In this document: one piece after another, positions 2,006 to 63,389 of the stretch | How positions within the stretch are numbered: position 1 is the stretch's first letter | Layout: every line of letters begins with the position of its first letter | From: Candidatus Uhrbacteria bacterium RIFCSPLOWO2_01_FULL_47_17 | GTDB taxonomy: Bacteria; Patescibacteriota; Patescibacteriia; UBA9934; GWF2-40-263 | Length of the DNA stretch: 64,000 nt | Direction of reading: 5' to 3' | Assembly (NCBI GenBank): GCA_001791305.1 | Contig: MGEI01000005.1 | Coordinates: 340,208 to 404,207, forward strand | Translations under genes and position numbers: made by a program | Notes under the pieces: model-generated | What the model saw: the letters and a program-made list of their open reading frames with translations, nothing else | What the model was told of the DNA's origin: nothing | Databases searched by the model: none

Positions 2006-3856
2006 CTAGTAGCCTGTGACTCCTTGAGCTGTGAGATCGCGGAGTTCTTGTGCCCATTTCTTGCGATCGCTATCTGCGTTTTCCGGATCCGGAAGCAGCG
2101 AGCGACGCGTGGTGTTCATGTAGGCCTGAAGGGTCTGAAAGCGACGCGTGGTTGCAATGTCTGCAGGGAGCTGATCATGAATCACCGCGAGTGCATCCTG
2201 AAGCGTTGCATCTTTCTTGCGAATGATGAGCGCTTCGAGTTCTGAGCCAAGCAATTGGAATGCTCCAGCCGAATAGCCTTTCAAAGCATCTTGCACCTGT
2301 TTCCATTCTTCCCCTTCCCGATTTGGGATGAGGTGTTTGATGGGGCGAAGCGTGAGCTCGATGAAATCATCGTAATCTTCTGCGATCGGATCATCCATCG
2401 GAATCACAATACTGAGACGCCCGGGCCTGCGCATGTCGGGCGAGAGCATGTGAAAGCGTGCGGTCATGAGGAGCCACACCACTTTTCCGCGCAAGCGCGG
2501 ATCCGCCATCCATCCCTGAATCGTGCCTGTCAGACGGCGTTCGGATTCGTGGGCGTTTGGTCCGACGCCACCGAAAACCGTATCCGCTTCATCAACGAGA
2601 ACCATCACTTTCGCAAGCGACTTCAGGACGCGATACAACTTTTCGATGATCACGTCTGTTTGTCCGAACCATTGCGAGCGGATATTTTTGAGGACAAGAA
2701 CCGGCATGCCGACTTGTGCCGCAAGCCCTTCAAAGACGAAAGACTTTCCGCCACCGATAGGTCCTGCAACACCCATGCCCGTTACCGCATCTTTGCCAGT
2801 TGATTGGATGCGACAGATGAGCTCATCCACAAACAATGCTTTGATCTTTCGACAACCGACCACATCCGCAAGCGAATGCATGGGTTGTTTGAACTCGACA
2901 ACGTCTTCACCAAGCTGGGACTTGATGTAGATTTCCACCCGCTTGATCACATCTTTCAACGTGACGGGGGACTTGTCATGAATCGCGCCTTTCAAGAGCT
3001 GACCGAGTGCCTGCAAGTTGAGGCCGGCCGTGTACGTCGCGAGTGTCTCTTTCGTGCTCCAAAGCGGCAACATACCGCTCACCTTCGCCGCTTCAAACCA
3101 CTCAATGAAATGCATGCGCGCGGTTTCATCCGGCGCCGGAACTTCCACTTTCATGACTTGCGGGAGTGATGTGAGACGACTGTTCATGAGGCCGATCGAT
3201 TCCGTGAGCAATACGACGGCATTGCGACCATGCGTGAAACTCGGATCTGAGAACCAATCCTGACAGATGGACAAACGCAGTCGATCGATTTCGGACAGAC
3301 GCGAGATTTCCGCTTCGGGAAGAAGCATGTCCGCCCATTCGATGATGATGATCAGCCGACTTGGCTTGACCACGTTGTTGTCATCCGTATCTTTGAACGT
3401 GATCGGAATTTGGCAGAAGGACCGCAGCAGCTGAAGTGCATAGGCGGGCCGTTCCAAACTCGTTTTCATCGAAAGATCGAAAGAGGTACCTGGCTCATCG
3501 AGCTTTTTGCGATCTGTATCCGTTGCCGTGAGTTGCATGAGGGAAAGCATACTTGCATCCATCCCCATTTTTGCCGCAGCCCAAGCATCGCGTACACGTT
3601 TTTTGTCTCCCTCGTTTACGAATCGAATTTGACGATTGGGTTCGTACACGATCGGAATGATGTCCGGACGGTCCCCCCACTTTTTCGTGAGATATTCCGT
3701 GAGGCTGATGTACTTACCATTTTTCCCTTCCGTCTTTTCAGGGAGAAAAAACAGGTCATGCACATTGCCGGAGAGTACAACAGAGCTCGATTGCCCTGAG
3801 TTCAAAATGCGATTGATCTGTGAACGGAACGGATGGTCGAATGTCTGATCGATCAT
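2006..3856 (-). CDS. AAA+ family ATPase with a large N-terminal domain (616 aa), translationally coupled to the ABC ATPase gene
   Basis: Walker A GPIGGGKS, Walker B VLVDEAD, and a sensor/arginine-finger region MTARFHMLSPDMRRPGRL. Its start overlaps the stop of the upstream ABC ATPase by 4 nt. Confidence 0.7.
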   Translation of the reverse strand: MIDQTFDHPFRSQINRILNSGQSSSVVLSGNVHDLFFLPEKTEGKNGKYISLTEYLTKKWGDRPDIIPIVYEPNRQIRFVNEGDKKRVRDAWAAAKMGMDASMLSLMQLTATDTDRKKLDEPGTSFDLSMKTSLERPAYALQLLRSFCQIPITFKDTDDNNVVKPSRLIIIIEWADMLLPEAEISRLSEIDRLRLSICQDWFSDPSFTHGRNAVVLLTESIGLMNSRLTSLPQVMKVEVPAPDETARMHFIEWFEAAKVSGMLPLWSTKETLATYTAGLNLQALGQLLKGAIHDKSPVTLKDVIKRVEIYIKSQLGEDVVEFKQPMHSLADVVGCRKIKALFVDELICRIQSTGKDAVTGMGVAGPIGGGKSFVFEGLAAQVGMPVLVLKNIRSQWFGQTDVIIEKLYRVLKSLAKVMVLVDEADTVFGGVGPNAHESERRLTGTIQGWMADPRLRGKVVWLLMTARFHMLSPDMRRPGRLSIVIPMDDPIAEDYDDFIELTLRPIKHLIPNREGEEWKQVQDALKGYSAGAFQLLGSELEALIIRKKDATLQDALAVIHDQLPADIATTRRFQTLQAYMNTTRRSLLPDPENADSDRKKWAQELRDLTAQGVTGY

Positions 3857-57620: not shown

Positions 57621-60125
57621 ATGGCACAAAAAAAACAACATTCTGAACCGGAAGAACCCGTTCAAGATATCACGACAAATGGGATTGGACGCATTGAGCG
57701 CCGAAACATTGCCGATGAAATGCAAACCGCATATCTCGACTACGCCATGTCCGTCATTGTTGGTCGTGCGCTTCCGGATATTCGCGATGGACTGAAACCA
57801 GTTCACCGCCGCATTTTGTATTCCATGTGGCAGACGGGACTCCGATCAAGTGCAAAGTTCAAAAAGTGTGCGTCTGTGGTTGGAGATGTACTCGGAAAGT
57901 ATCACCCACACGGAGATTCCGCTGTGTATGACTCGCTCGTGCGTATGGCGCAAGATTTTTCGATGCGCTATCCACTGATCCGCGGACAAGGGAACTTTGG
58001 ATCTCTCGATGGCGACCCGGCTGCGGCGTATCGATATACAGAAGCAAAGCTTGAAACCATTTCGGAAGAATTGCTTGTTGATATCGAGAAGGAGACGGTC
58101 GACTTCATTCCAAACTTTGATGGCACACACAAAGAACCAAAAGTGTTGCCTGCAAAACTTCCAAACTTGCTCATCAACGGAACAGTTGGAATCGCGGTTG
58201 GAATGGCGTCGAATATCCCTCCGCACAACCTCGGAGAAGTTTGTGATGCGGTACTCGCATTGATTCGCGACAAGGATACATCGATCGAGGATCTGTCAGA
58301 GATCGTTAAGGGTCCAGATTTTCCAACGGGTGGAATTGCGTACAGTAATGCGGACATCAAAACCGCCCTCGCAACCGGTCGTGGGGGGGTGGTCGTTCGA
58401 GGCAAAACGGATATTGTGGAAGATAAGAAAGGCAATTTCGCCATTATCATCACAGAAATTCCGTACCAAGTGAACAAAGCAAACTTGCTTATTCGCATTG
58501 CACAGAATGTTCGCGATAAGAAGATCGAAGGGATTAAAGATTTGCGCGACGAATCAACATCCGCCGGTGTTCGTGTTGTTGTTGAGTTAAAAAAAGATGC
58601 GTATCCAAAGAAAGTGTTGAATCGTTTGTATCAAACAACACAACTTCAGGAATCCACACACTACAACATGCTCGCACTTGTGGAGGGTGGAATTTTGCCG
58701 CGCGTACTCAACCTCAAGATGATTCTTGAGGAGTATCTCAAACATCGCCAAGAAGTGGTGAAGCGCCGCACACAGTTTGAACTTACGCGCGCGCTTGATC
58801 GTGCACATATCCTCGAAGGATTGCGCATTGCGCTCGCGCAGATCGACAAGATTATTGCGTGTATCAAGAAATCAAAAGACAAAGAAGAAGCGCGATTGAA
58901 CTTGATCAAACAATTTAAACTTTCCGAGAGACAAGCGGTCGCGATTCTCGACATGCGTTTGCAACAGCTTGCGAACCTAGAGACGTTGCGCATCGAACAA
59001 GAATATGCGGAAAAGATGGCGCTCATCAAAGAGCTTGAGTCTATTCTTGCAAGCGCAAAAAAGATGATGATGGTGATTGCGGAAGAAGTGGAAGGATTGA
59101 AACTCAAGTACGCGTCCCCTCGAAGAACTCAAATCATCAAGTCGGGAATTAAAGAATTCTCGATCGAAGACGTCGTTCCAGACACGGAAACGGTCGTAAT
59201 GATCACAAAAGCCGGATACATCAAGCGCATCGACCCAGACACATTCCGCACACAAAAGCGTGGAGGGAAGGGGGTCGTCGGCATGGCGTCCAAAGATGAG
59301 GATGAGGTCGAGCAAGTATTCTCGACAACCACACACAAAGATCTTCTGTTCTTCACGAGTAGAGGTCGTGTGTTCCAACTTAAAGCTTACGATGTTCCAG
59401 AGGCGTCGCGCATTGCGAAAGGCCAAGCGCTCGTAAACTTCCTCCAACTCGCGCCAGGTGAATCGGTATCCGCGTCGTTGTCGATGGACGAGCTCGCGGA
59501 CTCGAAATATCTTCTCATGGTGACAAACAAGGGAACGATCAAGAAAACAGATTTGTCCGAGTATGATTCCGTTCGCAAGTCGGGGTTGATCTCGATCAAA
59601 CTCCGAGACGGCGACAACCTCCAATGGGTTCGTCCAACGTCCGGAAAAGATCAGATCATGCTCGTGACATCCGGTGGACAAGCGGTTCGCTTCGAAGAAA
59701 AAGGCGTGCGCCCAATGGGTCGTGTCGCCTCTGGTGTTCGAGGAATCAAGCTCAAGGGTGATGATTCTGTGGTTGGAATGGGAATCATTCCAGGCTCCTC
59801 ATCGAAGAAACCGGGAGAGAAAGAGATTTTGGTTGTGATGGAAAACGGATACGGAAAACGCTCGGACCTTATCGAGTATAAGGTCCAAGGACGTGGCGGA
59901 TCCGGAATTAAAACCGCAAATATCAGCAAAAAGACAGGAAAAATCGTCGCGGCGCATATCGTCGATACGAAAGACGAGCGTGATATGTTCATTATTTCCG
60001 GCGCGGGTCAGGTGATCCGATCTGAACTGAAGTCCGTCTCTGTCCTCGGTCGCGCAACCCAAGGAGTTCGCATTATGCGATTCAAGAAGCCAGATGACAC
60101 GGTCGCGAGTGCTGCCCTCATTTAG
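57621..60125 (+). CDS. gyrA: DNA gyrase subunit A
   Basis: [26 protein letters not shown], active-site Tyr region [10 protein letters not shown], and C-terminal beta-pinwheel repeats; 834 aa. Confidence 0.95.
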
Positions 60126-60163
60126 CCAAAAAGACTGTGGTTTTTGCCACAGTCTTTTGATTT
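60123..60163 (+). repeat. 41-bp direct repeat, left copy (includes the gyrA stop and a perfect terminator hairpin)
   Basis: tagccaaaaagactgtggtttttgccacagtcttttgattt, identical to 63349-63389. Confidence 0.8.
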
Positions 60164-60333: not shown

Positions 60334-60993
60334 ATGGCAAAGCAGTCTTGGAGAATCAAGCTCGAGCAATGGCTCGCGGCAAATGGTGATGAAGGCATGT
60401 CCGGAGTAGTGGATCATCTTGCGATTTTGACTCGCGCGACGAGTCTTGTTCGTAAGCCCGGATTCAAAAAAGCTCTGGAGAAATTTTTGGACGAATGGGC
60501 CGGTCTTCCCGAACAAAAGGCCGATCCGATCCTCCGTCGCCTCTTTGAAGACGAAACGATCACCATCGCTCCGTGCGACGGTTCCCGGTACGTCGCCAAA
60601 GAAAAAGGCGTGTTCAAAGCGTACATCGAAGGTCTCTTCGCAAGTTGGGGTCTCGACAAGCCTGGACAGTCCACGGTTGCCGCGAATGTCTCCGTCTACG
60701 AGATGATCCGGGACGCGACCTTCGCTCAGATGTTCGGCTCTCTCGGGCCAGATCTCGACAAACTGTGTCTCTCACAGCATCAGATCGTCGAGTTCTGCGA
60801 AACGCATTCGGCACGTCTTCGGCAAGAAGGCTACGCCACATTCTTTCTTTTTAAGGAAGGCGATCAGTTCTACGTTGCGGGCGTGCGTGTCCACGCGGGC
60901 GGCCTGAGCGTGTACGTCCGCCGTCTCGAGCGCGACGATGTCTGGTATGGCGAGTTTCGTCATCGTCTCGTAGTCCCGCAACTGACCGTTTGA
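60334..60993 (+). CDS. DGR variable (target) protein with the C-terminal VR; no signal peptide
   Basis: The C-terminal 38 codons are matched by the TR with adenine-specific differences. Residues at the variable positions are G, R, H, G, S, Y, R, R, D, Y, F. Confidence 0.8.
   Translation: MAKQSWRIKLEQWLAANGDEGMSGVVDHLAILTRATSLVRKPGFKKALEKFLDEWAGLPEQKADPILRRLFEDETITIAPCDGSRYVAKEKGVFKAYIEGLFASWGLDKPGQSTVAANVSVYEMIRDATFAQMFGSLGPDLDKLCLSQHQIVEFCETHSARLRQEGYATFFLFKEGDQFYVAGVRVHAGGLSVYVRRLERDDVWYGEFRHRLVVPQLTV
60865..60978 (+). repeat. DGR variable repeat (VR), 114 nt
   Basis: Aligned with the TR at 61294-61407 there are 16 mismatches, and every one falls at a TR adenine. Confidence 0.85.
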
Positions 60994-61057
60994 AACTTAT
61001 TCGGATGACACTTTGTTTCTTTGTCCCTTTGACTCTTTTGAGTCCGGGGGATTTTTT

Positions 61058-61066
61058 TGTATAATG
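61058..61066 (+). promoter_or_regulatory. Extended -10 promoter element (TGTATAAT) positioned to transcribe the TR-containing RNA
   Basis: tgtataatg lies 25 nt downstream of the target-gene terminator hairpin gactcttttgagtc and about 230 nt upstream of the TR. Confidence 0.35.
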
Positions 61067-61293
61067 CATTTGCAATCGTGCGATATCTTGTGGCCAAGGC
61101 TACAAGGTCACGATTGTTTGGAATCGTTGTTGAGAATTTTGTTGGCTACGGCTTGCAAAAGAGTGATAATGATTCTGACAAACAAAAACTTTTCAGTTGG
61201 TGCGGTGCGCTTGTGGACTTCTTCGTCCCAAATAAAATTCAGCCGAATTTCTCGTGCACGATAAATCGGCAGTGATCTGGATGGCCCATCGTA

Positions 61294-61407
61294 CAATTCT
61301 ACGTTGCGAACGTGAATGTCAACGCGGACGGCCTGAACGTGAACGTCAACCGTCTCGAGAACGACAATGTCTGGAATGGCGAGTATCGTCATCGTCTCGT
61401 AGTCCCG
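61294..61407 (+). repeat. DGR template repeat (TR), 114 nt, in the same orientation as the VR
   Basis: The adenine-rich template consists of AAC/AAT codons at the variable positions. Confidence 0.85.
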
Positions 61408-61419
61408 AAAATGAAATGT

Positions 61420-61446
61420 TCTCCTCCCTATTGTTTGGGAGGAGTT
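61420..61446. terminator. Bidirectional terminator hairpin between the TR and the convergent avd gene
   Basis: ctcctccctattgtttgggaggag, followed by ttttcttttc on the + strand. The avd stop codon lies in its loop. Confidence 0.45.
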
Positions 61447-61769
61447 TTCTTTTCAATATCTTTTTTCCATCCGCCAAGCATTCTTCCAATTTCATCTAAA
61501 TCAACGGAAAGCGCAGTATATTTATCATTCGGCAGGCATTTGTTTTCCCACGCAATTTGTAAAAAGAATTTCACTCCGTCCAGTTTTGAAATACAGATGG
61601 TGAGTCGATTCATTTTTTGCTCACCGGAAAGATATTGCGAAACAAAAATTTGCTCAAGCATTTCGAGAAAGTATCCCTCAATCTTTCCACCAAGATTATG
61701 ACGCGATGTTTTTGGAAAATCTGTAAGCAATTTAAACCAATTTGTATAGGCACTCCTCGTTTTTGTCAT
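61428..61769 (-). CDS. avd: Avd-like accessory variability determinant (four-helix-bundle / 23S rRNA-IVS protein family), encoded on the strand opposite to the TR and RT
   Basis: FPKTSRHNLGGKIEGYFLEMLEQ and LDEIGRMLGGW match the Avd/IVS four-helix-bundle family consensus; 113 aa. Confidence 0.7.
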   Translation of the reverse strand: MTKTRSAYTNWFKLLTDFPKTSRHNLGGKIEGYFLEMLEQIFVSQYLSGEQKMNRLTICISKLDGVKFFLQIAWENKCLPNDKYTALSVDLDEIGRMLGGWKKDIEKKTPPKQ

Positions 61770-61824
61770 GACCGAAGGAGTTCGGGGGGGGGGTGAGAAT
61801 ATTAGACATATTCATTGAGCGTTT

Positions 61825-62829
61825 ATGAAAAAATTTAACCGCCGTTACGATGATATTATAACACTCGATAATTTACTTCGTGCATGGGAACAGTTTTTAT
61901 CGGGGAAGAAAAATCGTACGGATGTTGTGGAATTTCAAAATCATCTCATGGATAATATTTGTGATCTACAGCGATCACTCGAAGATAAAACGTATGTGCA
62001 TGGTGCATATCACGCATTTAATATTTCCGATCCAAAACCAAGGAGTATTCATAAGGCAACCGTCCGCGATCGGTTGCTTCACCATCTGATACATTCAGAG
62101 TTGTATGAATACTTCGATCAGAAATTTATTTACGATTCTTATTCGTGCCGAATGGAGAAGGGGACGCATAAGGCTATGAATCGATTCAGAGACTTTGGCA
62201 GAATTGTTTCAAAAAATAATACACGCACCTGTTGGGTATTGAAATGCGATATTCGAAAGTTCTTTGCAAATATCGATCACACAATCTTGAAAGATATTTT
62301 GGCAAAGCATATTGAGGATCGTGATGTGTTGAATCTTCTCGGTAACATCATCGATAGTTTTTCGACGCTCGGAAGAAAAGAGGTTGGTCTCCCGCTTGGA
62401 AATCTCACTTCGCAACTTCTCGTAAACATCTACATGAACGAGTTTGATCAGTTTATGAAGCGAACGGTCAAAGCGGAATATTACATTCGGTATGCAGATG
62501 ATTTTGTGATTTTGCATGAGGATGAGGAATATCTAAAACAGCTCATTCCAAAGATTTCAAATTTCCTCCAGGATCAGCTGGGACTTTGTTTGCACCCGGA
62601 TAAGTTGTTTCTGAAGACGCTTGTGTCCGGCGTTGATTTTCTAGGATGGGTACACTTTCCGCATCATCGGACGTTACGTACGGCCACAAAACGACGGATG
62701 TTCATACGGATTCAGGATCACTCGACACAAGAAACAATTCAATCGTATTTGGGGCTTATGAGACATGGGAATACCCATCAGCTTCAAAAGAATCCTTTAT
62801 TTCTTGACGTAAAGATCAAAGATCGATAA
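61825..62829 (+). CDS. DGR reverse transcriptase
   Basis: RT motifs include the DGR-diagnostic motif 4 (LPLGNLTSQLLVNIYM) and the YADDF catalytic box. Confidence 0.9.
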   Translation: MKKFNRRYDDIITLDNLLRAWEQFLSGKKNRTDVVEFQNHLMDNICDLQRSLEDKTYVHGAYHAFNISDPKPRSIHKATVRDRLLHHLIHSELYEYFDQKFIYDSYSCRMEKGTHKAMNRFRDFGRIVSKNNTRTCWVLKCDIRKFFANIDHTILKDILAKHIEDRDVLNLLGNIIDSFSTLGRKEVGLPLGNLTSQLLVNIYMNEFDQFMKRTVKAEYYIRYADDFVILHEDEEYLKQLIPKISNFLQDQLGLCLHPDKLFLKTLVSGVDFLGWVHFPHHRTLRTATKRRMFIRIQDHSTQETIQSYLGLMRHGNTHQLQKNPLFLDVKIKDR

Positions 62830-62862: not shown

Positions 62863-63105
62863 ATGATCAATATTGTAAAAACGACGAGCAAAGGACAAGT
62901 CACATTGCCCATGCACTGGCGTAAAAAATTTCACACAAATCGCTATACAATGAAAGAGGTTAATGACACGCTTGTTATTTCTCCACTTGAGGTTGAGTCG
63001 CTCGAAGAAGAGAATTGGACAACAATTTTTGATGCGAAACGTGACAATGAAGGGAAGGGAATCCCGATCGATCAGCTTATTGATACATTGAAGCGCACAC
63101 TCTAG
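62863..63105 (+). CDS. AbrB/MazE/SpoVT-type antitoxin
   Basis: Swapped-hairpin motif TTSKGQVTLPMHWRKKF; 80 aa. Confidence 0.55.
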   Translation: MINIVKTTSKGQVTLPMHWRKKFHTNRYTMKEVNDTLVISPLEVESLEEENWTTIFDAKRDNEGKGIPIDQLIDTLKRTL

Positions 63106-63111
63106 CTTTCT

Positions 63112-63351
63112 ATGGATAAAATCGAAAAGCTTTTACGTAAAGCAAAGAAAGCAGATCGTGAGCGGTTATTGGCAGTATTGGAGGCTGTTCGAGAGGGGAA
63201 ACTCGAGGGATTGCACGTAAAACGACTGACAAATTCCGCTTTTTATCGGGTTCGTGTTGGAGATTTCAGGATTATTTTCTCAATCGATCACGCAAATAAA
63301 CGTATTTTGATCGAATCTGTCTCATCTCGAGACGAGAATACATACAAATAG
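63112..63351 (+). CDS. RelE/ParE-family toxin
   Basis: AFYRVRVGDFRIIFSIDHANKRILIESVSSRDE is a typical RelE/ParE C-terminal core; 79 aa; 6 nt after the antitoxin. Confidence 0.6.
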   Translation: MDKIEKLLRKAKKADRERLLAVLEAVREGKLEGLHVKRLTNSAFYRVRVGDFRIIFSIDHANKRILIESVSSRDENTYK

Positions 63352-63389
63352 CCAAAAAGACTGTGGTTTTTGCCACAGTCTTTTGATTT
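63349..63389 (+). repeat. 41-bp direct repeat, right copy (includes the toxin stop and terminator hairpin)
   Basis: tagccaaaaagactgtggtttttgccacagtcttttgattt. Confidence 0.8.

Follow-up and report, generated by a model that had tools for sequence, protein, structure and literature searches.

The window analyzed here is the whole 64,000-nt stretch of DNA, and all coordinates are given as positions within it. It contains a DGR whose parts can be read directly from the ORFs and repeats. The target (variable-protein) gene, taken from the ORF list, is a plus-strand ORF of 219 aa at 60334-60993; a Pfam search of its protein gave no match. The VR (60865-60985, plus strand) occupies the last ~125 nt of this ORF, at its 3' end, and is a repeat of the TR (61294-61414, plus strand). 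The two form a 121-nt pair in an ungapped register, with an offset of 429 and 85% identity, and the TR base is A at all 18 of their mismatches. The avd gene lies on the minus strand at 61428-61769, convergent with the TR RNA, and its ORF matches Pfam bAvd PF22296 over residues 3-104 of 113 (E 1.3e-13, 51.8 bits, cutoff 40). The DGR reverse transcriptase follows on the plus strand at 61825-62829 (RVT_1, E 9.3e-24), and its translation carries the motifs LGNLTSQ and YADD, the former of which agrees with [LIV]GxxxSQ, which we take to be the signature of DGR reverse transcriptases. Because the RT starts 55 nt from the start of avd and on the opposite strand, the two genes are divergent. A first-pass annotation of this DNA had already placed avd opposite to a divergent RT, and this strand assignment stands: the minus-strand ORF matches bAvd, the plus-strand RT matches RVT_1, and in a profile check of both strands the plus-strand ORFs over the avd stretch matched nothing. 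The A-only TR/VR pair, the DGR-type RT, the position of the VR at the 3' end of the target gene, the presence of Avd, and a VR that varies while the TR stays constant identify the locus as a DGR and establish its parts and their strands.

The variation of the VR was seen in nine metagenome population copies, in which both the Avd and the TR are identical. These copies hold at least three VR versions, whose differences are confined to TR-A positions. As the VR varies among population copies with a constant TR, the element is, judging from these variants, active in natural populations. Comparison of the TR and VR also revealed an IMH-like end of the VR (60964-60982, plus strand), consisting of the A-poor block CGTCTCGTAGTCCCG followed by CAAC. 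The block is the same in TR and VR in 61 loci, and the change from 'CCGAAAC/A' in the TR to 'CCGCAAC' in the VR is a fixed difference that remains unchanged across VR versions.

To place this locus among its relatives, we confirmed 547 RT relatives in GTDB genomes and used about 70 related loci as the comparison set. The best 80 of the 547 relatives come nearly all from CPR/Patescibacteria MAGs. A very large part of all natural DGRs is found in CPR bacteria, almost all of them with the B3 architecture. Among the related loci with readable upstream sequence, 75 of 76 carry a minus-strand avd immediately upstream of the RT, and in 67 of 71 loci the TR is on the RT strand and adjoins the 3' end of avd. 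The VR lies upstream of the TR by a median of 348 nt, and in five loci it is remote or on the other strand. This arrangement had been called non-canonical in the first-pass annotation, a description that has to be withdrawn, since it corresponds to architecture B3, TR-(avd)-RT, which the passages of Wu et al. on DGR architecture (2018, NAR 46:11, PMC5758913) report for 90% of CPR DGRs. The order and strands of B3 (target/VR, TR, reverse-strand avd, RT) are the same here, without any difference in gene order from what those passages describe. The same passages state that a minimum of two transcription units is required when the components are split between strands; they classify gene order, and within them there is no mention of a leader RNA, a TR promoter, or a TR terminator (PMC5758913). 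The layout is already known and typical of CPR, and the new part is the RNA.

Upstream of the TR, two elements lie at the junction with the target gene. The first is a terminator-like hairpin, read from the sequence on the plus strand (61025-61035/61040-61050), with a T-run at 61052-61058; a partial Rfam match also treats this hairpin as a terminator stem. The second is the promoter-like site of the TR RNA (61038-61065, plus strand), composed of TTGAGT, 16 nt, and TATAAT at 61060-61065, with 10 of 12 consensus matches. This site fits hexamers and spacer of the sigma-70 type (criterion 16-18 nt), and a promoter function is predicted for it. The first-pass annotation had read an 'extended -10' (TGnTATAAT) at this place, but in the window the TG abuts TATAAT directly and the promoter scan scores the feature 'no', whereas a proper TGnTAnnnT is present in many relatives. 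Within the single sequence neither type of site was above chance, with seven promoter-like sites vs. 5.5 expected from shuffles and seven terminator-like sites vs. 4.1. The matches do rise above chance because they recur at fixed positions in ~60-70 related loci. A -10-like hexamer precedes the first leader hairpin (P1, below) by 20-25 nt in most of 61 loci, the TATAAT columns are conserved across loci with a -35 that is weak in most of them, and an equivalent hairpin and T-run precede the -10 box in most relatives. The -10 hexamer is also kept in four of the five loci that have their VR elsewhere. The scan detected no RT promoter-like site at 61446-61824, either inside avd or in the 55-nt gap between avd and RT, so that read-through from the TR promoter across the antisense avd could express the RT.

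Between the promoter-like site and the TR lies a leader of ~220 nt (61066-61293). It is a conserved plus-strand RNA structure with strong covariation, and we describe it as a new family, represented by model R1, a covariance model of the leader 3' domain. The 5' half of the leader (61072-61178, plus strand; RNAalifold helices 1-4) holds two similar hairpins, P1, with its core at 61085-61093/61100-61108, and P2, with its core at 61137-61146/61151-61160 and an outer stem at 61128-61131/61165-61168. Each carries a conserved loop of the GG-YYA-NGG-CU type. Helices 1-4 display compensatory changes, with 85.7-96.2% paired cells per helix in the RNAalifold result, and the MFE fold of the single sequence recovers the helices of P1 and P2. 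The 3' half (61179-61296, plus strand), as resolved by alignment A2 and model R1, starts with an A-rich strand and continues with P3, a 12-bp long-range helix (61200-61211/61283-61294) that encloses P4 (61215-61218/61225-61228) and P5 (61242-61250/61263-61270). The 3' strand of P3 stops exactly at the first base of the TR. The sequence GTG at 61272-61274 is invariant, and GATGG at 61280-61284 is conserved.

Several measures argue for this fold. Compensatory changes occur in 33 of the 38 predicted pairs of the leader, its paired cells amount to 94.7% vs. 69% in shuffled and 39-50% in slid controls, and cells changed on both sides number 732 vs. 215. For the 3' half alone, as defined by A2 and R1, the paired cells reach 95.2% (72% shuffled, 27-53% slid) and the cells changed on both sides 375 vs. 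101. None of 500 shuffles attained any of the five covariation measures. G-U pairs are conserved as well (62 of 70 rows have UG at columns 33/187, for example), which makes this a fold of the plus strand specifically. For 61072-61455, the z-score of the MFE structure is -3.8. A search of 676 kb with R1 returned 71 matches, one per locus except for two in L051, all of them on the RT strand and directly 5' of a TR, and these include loci outside model building; the 64-kb window gave a single match. The leader also persists, according to R1, in all five loci with the VR elsewhere. No leader ORF is conserved among the relatives, an Rfam search of the leader gave no riboswitch match, and in the literature searched we found no account of such a 5' domain for CPR DGRs. 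The first-pass annotation had located the functional RNA element in this 5' leader, and comparison with other CPR DGR loci bears out that placement, as the leader is a conserved, covarying, structured domain across ~70 relatives.

At the other end of the TR, the terminator scan identified a GC hairpin (61421-61444, plus strand) and U-tract (61445-61453) that overlap the avd stop codon. In the window the hairpin has 8 bp, six of them G-C pairs, is followed by TTTTCTTTT, and is separated by 6 nt from the end of the TR/VR homology. A hairpin and U-tract of this kind, with a perfect 5-12 bp stem and at least five T in the next 9 nt, are present in 68 of 68 loci, where the hairpin begins a median of 11 nt beyond the homology end. 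The stem sequence covaries, and loops of 3 to 29 nt occur across loci. We infer that the TR RNA has its 3' end at this hairpin and U-tract, which resemble an intrinsic terminator; the hairpin may double as an Avd-binding stem-loop. The TR is bracketed, much as the first-pass annotation had proposed, by a promoter-like site of its own (61038-61065) and a terminator-like hairpin (61421-61444); indeed, the sequence features it named are all present at, or very near, the positions where it had put them.

The U-tract also leaves a mark on the gene that lies antisense to it. Its codons in avd are frozen at synonymous sites (K108, AAA in 48 of 48 cases; N109, AAC in 30 of 30), and in the ~140 nt downstream of the TR we detected no nucleotide constraint other than in these U-tract codons, 106-109. 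Synonymous-site entropy at 4/6-fold sites is ~2.0 bits in avd codons 56-105 vs. ~1.8 in codons 1-55. As codons 56-105 are just as variable as the 5' half of the gene, no conserved RNA appears to be hidden there. A spacer RNA concealed antisense to avd was considered as a candidate and is disfavoured, synonymous sites being free outside the U-tract.

A candidate pairing connects the leader with the sequence behind the TR. RNAduplex pairs 61187-61189 and 61191-61195 with 61412-61420, giving a tentative clamp whose 5' strand (61187-61195, plus strand) would be the primer side and whose 3' strand (61412-61420, plus strand) lies between the end of the TR/VR homology and the hairpin. Across loci, cognate pairs of the two strands have a mean of -4.55 kcal/mol vs. 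-2.49 for non-cognate pairs (z = -9.6; 0 of 20000 permutations reach it), and in the best fixed register 74% of positions are paired, compared with a background of 39 +/- 13%. A compensatory example between subfamilies is AACAAGA/TCTTGTT in L015 vs. AACAATA/TATTGTT in L023. The duplex is A-U rich and weak, at about -4.5 kcal/mol, and some cognate advantage also appears in a reversed-sequence control (-3.26 vs. -2.35). The clamp was not called by RNAalifold on a MAFFT alignment of the TR-deleted mini-RNA, and a column-wise scan of the whole leader against the TR 3' flanks returned trivial matches between A-runs and U-runs and no covarying pairing. Since neither of these two analyses recovered the clamp, its evidence is the comparison of cognate with non-cognate pairs. 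The support for the pairing is moderate, and its geometry would suit a template:primer duplex.

[quoted passage not shown] The DGR RNA of BPP-1 comprises the avd 3' end, the TR, and a 140-nt spacer (Rfam RF03022, Phage_DGR, formerly the RT-10 motif), and this spacer, which lies downstream of the TR, holds RT-Avd, primes cDNA synthesis, and halts the enzyme. We searched the locus with Phage_DGR, which scored 104.7 bits on the BPP-1 spacer as a positive control, and obtained nothing at E<=10 on either strand; membership in Phage_DGR (RT-10) is rejected on these results. In the reverse direction, model R1 had no match on phage BPP-1. Similarity to the BPP-1 spacer RNA is not detectable, and the likenesses lie in the plan of the two RNAs. 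In both, structured RNA flanks the TR and a stem-loop lies directly 3' of it, the helix at the 5' border of the TR here resembles the cPRT stop, the short duplex with nucleotides just 3' of the copied region can be compared with the TR:Sp template:primer duplex, and there is an IMH/IMH* asymmetry. However, the large structured domain is 5' of the TR here and 3' of it in BPP-1, and no non-coding spacer separates the TR from the next gene here. The B3 layout leaves no room for a BPP-1-type spacer downstream of the TR, and because avd is antisense, its 3' end cannot provide the upstream sense segment that it provides in BPP-1.

Two other kinds of RNA found near reverse transcriptases were also compared. 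The RT-9 RNA (RF03080) was reportedly described by Weinberg and colleagues in 2017 as an RT-associated motif without an assigned role. It occurs near RT genes and has a hairpin loop, GguUAcGgcU, like that of P1 and P2. It aligns to the homologous part of the leader in the window (61083-61171) and in L023, but with 23.3 and 26.7 bits, respectively, both scores stay under the gathering score of 46.1. Matches at the E-value threshold occurred in two of eight sequences, and none of 18 related loci reached the gathering score. At 92 nt, RT-9 differs in being too short to cover more than the first half of the leader. We reject membership in RT-9 because the scores are far under the gathering score, and RT-9 is possibly a distant relative of hairpin P1. 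Retron ncRNAs (msr-msd) are similar in that the proposed RNA here is also a stand-alone structured RNA beside an RT gene that would combine scaffold and template and be primed internally. They differ in that the RT here is of the DGR class and works with Avd, and its product is homed into the VR with adenine mutagenesis; no inverted repeats of the msr/msd type and no priming guanosine were identified at this locus.

Weighing this evidence, we put the probability at roughly 60% that the locus is an active DGR of the CPR layout in which the TR is made as a separate RNA of ~380 nt with a conserved folded domain 5' of the TR. Under such a scheme the target gene would close with its own terminator, and the -10 box at 61060-61065 would start an RNA near 61072. 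This RNA would begin with a folded 5' domain of ~220 nt, made up of two hairpins and then the 12-bp helix enclosing two more, continue with the 121-nt TR and its IMH*-like end, and finish with the GC hairpin and U-tract, where its end would overlie the stop codon of avd. By analogy, the 5' domain would take over the job of the 3' spacer of BPP-1, namely to wrap RT-Avd, position the primer, and stop the polymerase. As the 5' domain would replace the 3' spacer, the accessory RNA would be permuted relative to the phage model. P3, which adjoins the TR 5' end, could act as the polymerase stop, and the hairpin directly 3' of the TR could serve as a grip for Avd, as the terminator, or as both. The A-rich leader strand (61187-61195) paired to 61412-61420 could form the template:primer duplex, with its 3' end facing into the TR. 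The transcript ends and the scaffold, stop, and primer roles are all predictions.

Other explanations place the functional RNA elsewhere or give the leader another task. The hairpin behind the TR, for instance, might be an Avd stem-loop only, within a phage-like co-linear RNA that runs through the antisense avd to the RT, with the leader as an extra. The spacer-like elements for priming and RT binding would in that case be downstream of the TR, like those of BPP-1. The Avd-binding stem-loop of BPP-1 does open the spacer right behind the TR, and Handa et al. (bioRxiv 10.1101/2023.10.23.563531) reported putative Avd-binding stem-loops and stop duplexes just 3' of the TR in 207 of 278 Avd-containing DGRs, whose taxa include CPR members; these stem-loops fit such a phage-like reading of the hairpin. 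Read-through from TR to RT would furthermore solve how the RT is expressed, given that no RT promoter was found at 61446-61824. Yet a co-linear RNA would have to cross avd codons 56-105, the ~150 nt past the U-tract, whose synonymous sites are unconstrained, and the U-tract is kept in every one of the 68 loci and frozen against synonymous change. The perfect stems with loops of 3-29 nt are typical of terminators, and Phage_DGR has no match on either strand, so we regard a co-linear RNA as unlikely. The same U-tract figures in a self-priming scheme, in which the terminated U-tail would fold onto the A-rich GAAAAUGAAA at the TR end and its 3'-OH would prime, with no leader primer. In the window, UUUCUUUUC does pair with GAAAAUGAAA in the MFE fold, two G-C pairs included, and so lengthens the terminator stem. 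Naorem and colleagues reportedly proposed in 2017 that BPP-1 is primed from the 3'-OH of nicked template RNA, a proposal that would lend such a scheme a precedent. However, the stem extension is not conserved in most relatives, because their hairpin has UUU right before it and the A-run 12-14 nt upstream, and complementarity between an A-tract and a U-tract is generic among terminators, which makes self-priming very improbable.

The leader itself could instead be regulatory, either as a riboswitch-like or protein-binding 5' UTR that sets the level of the TR RNA, or as an element of the target gene, acting as its 3' UTR or in retrohoming. Its two hairpins with conserved loops and its invariant single-stranded motifs are reminiscent of RNAs that bind ligands or proteins, and it is located between the target gene and the TR. 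There is also a precedent in the GC-rich inverted repeat 3' of the VR's IMH, which is required for efficient homing in BPP-1 according to the portion of Wu et al. that treats it (PMC5758913). But in the five loci with a remote or other-strand VR the leader travels with the TR and not with the target gene, P3 terminates exactly on TR base 1, there is no Rfam riboswitch match, and in 676 kb the leader is seen only beside DGR TRs; a regulatory role is quite improbable on this evidence. It is extremely improbable that the leader encodes a small protein through the plus-strand ORFs 61013-61264 or 61057-61275. The window does have ORFs of 72-83 codons here, but they have no Pfam matches, among relatives the longest open frame has anywhere between 32 and 79 codons and switches strand, and the variation preserves base pairs, including the strand-specific G-U pairs. 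A plus-strand avd and a leader protein were also tried as candidates and rejected, with no Pfam match for the plus-strand ORFs over 61013-61701 or for the minus-strand ORF 61108-61392.

The gap between avd and RT has a further feature. It contains a small hairpin, CCGAAGGAGTTCGG (61771-61784), and a G10 tract (61784-61793), which together span 61771-61793 with no strand assigned. A simple repeat (G7-12, (GA)n, (GT)n, or (TC)n) occurs in the same gap in 75 of 76 loci, and the flanking sequence used for comparison has seven non-A/T SSRs in 585 kb. Among near-identical copies, the tract varies in length and in its neighbouring bases, and the repeat is slippage-prone by its sequence. With regard to translation of the tract, 25 of 75 loci have an upstream ATG whose frame continues through it, which is the proportion expected both by chance and from a 1:2 ratio of ON to OFF. 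No link between DGRs and a repeat tract was found among the top literature matches listed. If the idea is true, slippage of the repeat would switch avd/RT stochastically and the diversifier would itself be phase-variable, and a tract acting as a switch would mean on/off control of hypermutation at the population level.

Extending the proposal of a stand-alone TR RNA, we suggest tentatively, and at less than even odds, that in the CPR B3 clade, the largest environmental clade of DGRs, the accessory RNA that recruits RT-Avd and primes and stops cDNA synthesis has moved 5', as part of a stand-alone TR RNA of ~380 nt with a clamp primer and a P3 stop, and that its avd/RT are repeat-switched. The R1 covariance model and the coordinates given here make the upstream-helper idea directly testable. 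The phage rule, in which the TR is taken together with a downstream stretch, now guides both the annotation and the engineering of DGR RNAs. If the helper RNA is upstream, a compact, self-contained cassette that combines promoter, scaffold, template, and terminator would be handy for targeted-mutagenesis tools, the phage rule of TR plus ~100-140 nt downstream would leave out the RNA that is functional in this clade, and comparing the two permuted solutions would reveal the RNA-protein contacts that are essential.

The DGR in the window comprises a plus-strand target gene (ORF 60334-60993) with the variable repeat (VR, 60865-60985) at its 3' end, a plus-strand template repeat (TR, 61294-61414) at a 429-nt offset, a minus-strand accessory variability determinant gene (avd, 61428-61769, 113 codons), and a plus-strand reverse transcriptase gene (RT, 61825-62829). 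TR and VR differ at 18 positions, and all 18 are adenine in the TR. The RT was identified by Pfam as an RVT_1 reverse transcriptase, and its translation contains both LGNLTSQ and YADD. The first-pass annotation had described an avd convergent with the TR and an RT transcribed divergently from avd, and a Pfam profile search of both strands confirmed this observation: the minus-strand ORF matches bAvd (PF22296, E 1.3e-13) over nearly its full length, no plus-strand ORF over the same stretch has any Pfam match, and avd and RT are separated by a 55-nt gap.

This arrangement, which the first-pass annotation called non-canonical, is so relative to the phage model only, since it corresponds to architecture B3, TR-(avd)-RT with parentheses marking the reverse strand, as described by Wu et al. 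(2018, PMC5758913), who also state that DGR components on different strands need at least two transcription units. A scan with the window RT confirmed 547 RT relatives in GTDB genomes, and the best 80 of these come almost entirely from CPR/Patescibacteria MAGs. Of the 76 related loci with readable upstream sequence, 75 have an opposite-strand avd immediately upstream of the RT, and an RT-strand TR abuts the avd 3' end in 67 of 71 loci (gap 10-79 nt). The same strand usually carries the VR as well, another 250-690 nt upstream (median 348 nt). The architecture is already catalogued, and our own survey agrees with B3.

Our main new result is a predicted structured leader RNA between the target gene and the TR, for which the comparative evidence is strong. 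A non-coding leader of about 230 nt had been proposed here, and its counterparts in other CPR DGR loci are conserved at a fixed register, with covarying structure, in loci whose RTs are 61-77% identical; the TATAAT box is among the conserved columns, and no conserved ORF was found in the leader among relatives. The RNAalifold consensus of 68 leaders has 38 pairs, and compensatory changes are seen at 33 of these. In this alignment standard pairs occupy 94.7% of cells, compared with 69.2% after shuffling and only 39-50% when the partners are slid by 1-3 columns, while changes on both sides occur in 732 cells versus 215 after shuffling; none of 500 shuffles reached any of five pairing measures. 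Conserved G-U positions (GU in 58-59 rows, UG in 58) indicate that the fold belongs to the plus-strand RNA. The consensus begins with two similar hairpins, P1 (61085-61093/61100-61108) and P2 (61137-61146/61151-61160, with an outer stem at 61128-61131/61165-61168), which have a common loop of the GG-YYA-NGG-CU type. These are followed by an A-rich strand (61180-61196) and a 12-bp long-range helix, P3 (61200-61211/61283-61294), which encloses P4 (61215-61218/61225-61228) and P5 (61242-61250/61263-61270) and whose last base is the first base of the TR. The minimum free energy fold of 61072-61455 as a single sequence reproduces the leader helices (z = -3.8).

A covariance model of the 3' half of the leader (R1, built from 56 sequences; window 61179-61296) gave 71 matches in 676 kb, all on the RT strand and immediately 5' of a TR, including 14 loci outside its training set and five with the VR elsewhere; the entire 64-kb window has a single match. 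Cells are paired in 95.2% of the R1 alignment, compared with 72% when shuffled and 27-53% when slid. Each locus has one match except L051, which has two (2983-3100 and 3285-3396) at 37.7 and 40.6 bits, below all other loci; its leader may be duplicated or decaying.

The TR was also said to have its own extended -10 promoter and a hairpin terminator. A promoter scan found a promoter-like TTGAGT-16 nt-TATAAT at 61038-61065, in which TG directly abuts TATAAT, so the promoter-like site stands but the -10 is not a canonical extended one; a terminator scan found a terminator-like hairpin at 61421-61444 followed by TTTTCTTTT. As neither match is above chance in a single sequence, the case for both rests on locus comparison. 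Most of 61 loci carry a -10-like hexamer 20-25 nt ahead of P1 (such as TATAAT, TATACT or TACAAT, in many cases with TGn) and, directly before it, a hairpin and T-run that would terminate the target gene; the window equivalents are at 61025-61058 (hairpin and T-run) and 61060-61065 (-10 box). Downstream of the TR, all 68 loci have a perfect GC-rich stem of 5-12 bp followed by at least five T in 9 nt, located at a median of 11 nt past the end of TR/VR homology, with covarying stem sequences and loops of 3-29 nt. The U-tract corresponds to avd codons 106-109 on the other strand, which are synonymously frozen (Lys108 is AAA in 48/48 and Asn109 is AAC in 30/30). At four- and six-fold sites, codons 56-105 are as variable as codons 1-55, and synonymous-site variability across codons 1-105 revealed no hidden spacer-like element antisense to avd, suggesting that RNA function stops at the U-tract. 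There is thus good comparative evidence for a putative 3' end of the TR RNA at this hairpin, and the predicted RNA would span some 380 nt (about 61072-61453), within the 350-390 nt originally estimated. The promoter scan also found no RT promoter in the avd-RT gap or inside avd, which keeps a read-through transcript somewhat plausible. The predicted TR RNA and the avd coding region overlap at their 3' ends by about 26 nt on opposite strands (61428-61453), and the hairpin common to both straddles the avd stop codon. The convergent transcripts would consequently be complementary at their ends, with a possible regulatory consequence.

In the Bordetella phage BPP-1 DGR, cDNA synthesis requires 20 nt upstream of the TR and a 140-nt spacer downstream. 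An Avd-binding stem-loop lies at the 5' end of this spacer and an RT-binding one at the 3' end; the spacer also contributes to a TR:Sp template:primer duplex, in which Sp A56 serves as the primer, and to a stop duplex with the upstream segment. The BPP-1 accessory RNA is therefore 3' of the TR, whereas the proposed one of the window DGR is 5'. With the same tool, the Rfam family of the BPP-1 spacer (RF03022, Phage_DGR) reaches 104.7 bits on BPP-1 but has no match in the window at E<=10, and R1 has none in the BPP-1 cassette with filters off, so no homology between the two RNAs is detectable. Judged by position, the natural counterpart of the BPP-1 stop element would be P3, at the 5' border of the TR, and that of the Avd-binding stem-loop would be the hairpin just 3' of the TR. 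Such a stem-loop has been predicted just 3' of the TR for DGRs including CPR members (Handa et al., bioRxiv 10.1101/2023.10.23.563531), and the post-TR hairpin may be both an Avd-binding counterpart and a terminator. Rfam RT-9 (RF03080; Weinberg et al. 2017), an RT-associated motif of unassigned role, contains a hairpin whose loop (GguUAcGgcU) resembles those of P1 and P2, and it gives sub-threshold matches at the homologous place (window, 23.3 bits; L023, 26.7 bits); we rejected the leader as a member because no match reaches the gathering score of 46.1. Overall, comparative analysis suggests that this DGR carries its accessory RNA domain in a permuted position, 5' of the template, with a candidate role in priming.

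Moderate support for such priming comes from complementarity between the A-rich strand that directly precedes P3 in the leader and the U-rich stretch that separates the hairpin from the end of TR/VR homology (in the window, 61187-61189 and 61191-61195 with 61412-61420). The two strands change together between subfamilies: AACAAGA/TCTTGTT in L015 versus AACAATA/TATTGTT in L023, AAATGAAAA/TTTTCATTT in L024 versus AAATAAAGA/TCTTTATTT in L074, AAAAGT/ACTTTT in L065, and ATTTAG/CTAAAT in L047. Mean duplex energy is -4.55 kcal/mol for cognate and -2.49 for non-cognate strands (z = -9.6; 0 of 20000 permutations reach the cognate mean), and pairing reaches 74% of cells in the best fixed register, against 39 +/- 13% across registers as a whole. 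Three caveats apply: the duplex is rich in A-U pairs, some of the cognate energy advantage persists in a reversed-sequence control, and RNAalifold did not call the duplex on the sequence-based alignment. The geometry fits, since the leader strand and the TR have their 3' ends facing each other and extension of the leader strand would copy the TR; this strand is internal, so a 2'-OH or a nick would be required for priming, as in BPP-1.

The avd-RT gap contains a G10 tract (61784-61793) beside a small hairpin that covaries among loci (61771-61784). Of 76 loci, 75 have a simple repeat here (poly-G of 7-12 in 55, (GA)n in 17, (GT)n in two and (TC)n in one), compared with seven non-A/T repeats in 585 kb of flanks; the repeats lie 13-33 nt upstream of the Avd-homologous region. 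Tract length differs between near-identical loci (L063 and L064, L004 and L005, L002 and L069), and population copies have G10, G11 or base substitutions beside the tract. The repeat resembles a phase-variation tract for the control of avd and/or RT, with reading frame, promoter spacing and 5' UTR as candidate modes; none of the papers listed by our literature search connects DGRs with such tracts.

An exact 41-bp direct repeat, TAGCCAAAAAGACTGTGGTTTTTGCCACAGTCTTTTGATTT, is present at 60123-60163 and 63349-63389, and the 3.2-kb block within the repeats holds the target gene, TR, avd, RT and two further small ORFs. These are a MazE/AbrB-like ORF right after the RT (62863-63105; PF04014, E 9.5e-5, just below cutoff) and a ParE-type toxin ORF (63112-63351; PF05016, E 2.8e-5, above cutoff), a type II toxin-antitoxin pair inside the cassette. 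The gyrA stop codon marks the start of one repeat copy and the stop codon of the ParE-like ORF that of the other, and each copy contains the gyrA terminator hairpin, suggesting that the cassette arrived behind gyrA as a single insertion that duplicated the gyrA terminator. Opposite-strand tRNA genes lie about 15-130 nt from the RT stop in L003 (4046-4116), L020 (4963-5035) and L044 (5054-5125), and farther away in L012 (5631-5803), a hint that related cassettes often adjoin tRNA genes.

Eight ENA metagenome contigs share the gyrA-flanked context and have an Avd protein identical to that of the window; five of them end within the RT or target gene, probably through assembly breaks. The VR end, CCGCAACTGAC, is constant among these population copies and differs from the TR end, CCGAAAATGAA. 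Across 61 loci there is a fixed difference (CCGAAAC in TR, CCGCAAC in VR) after an A-poor invariant block, which is the IMH/IMH* asymmetry of VR and TR ends known from BPP-1. All nine copies, including that of the window, have an identical TR, while at least three versions of the VR are present among them, with differences confined to TR-adenine positions. The element is therefore active, and this varied VR alongside a constant TR is direct evidence from natural populations that the DGR is diversifying its target.
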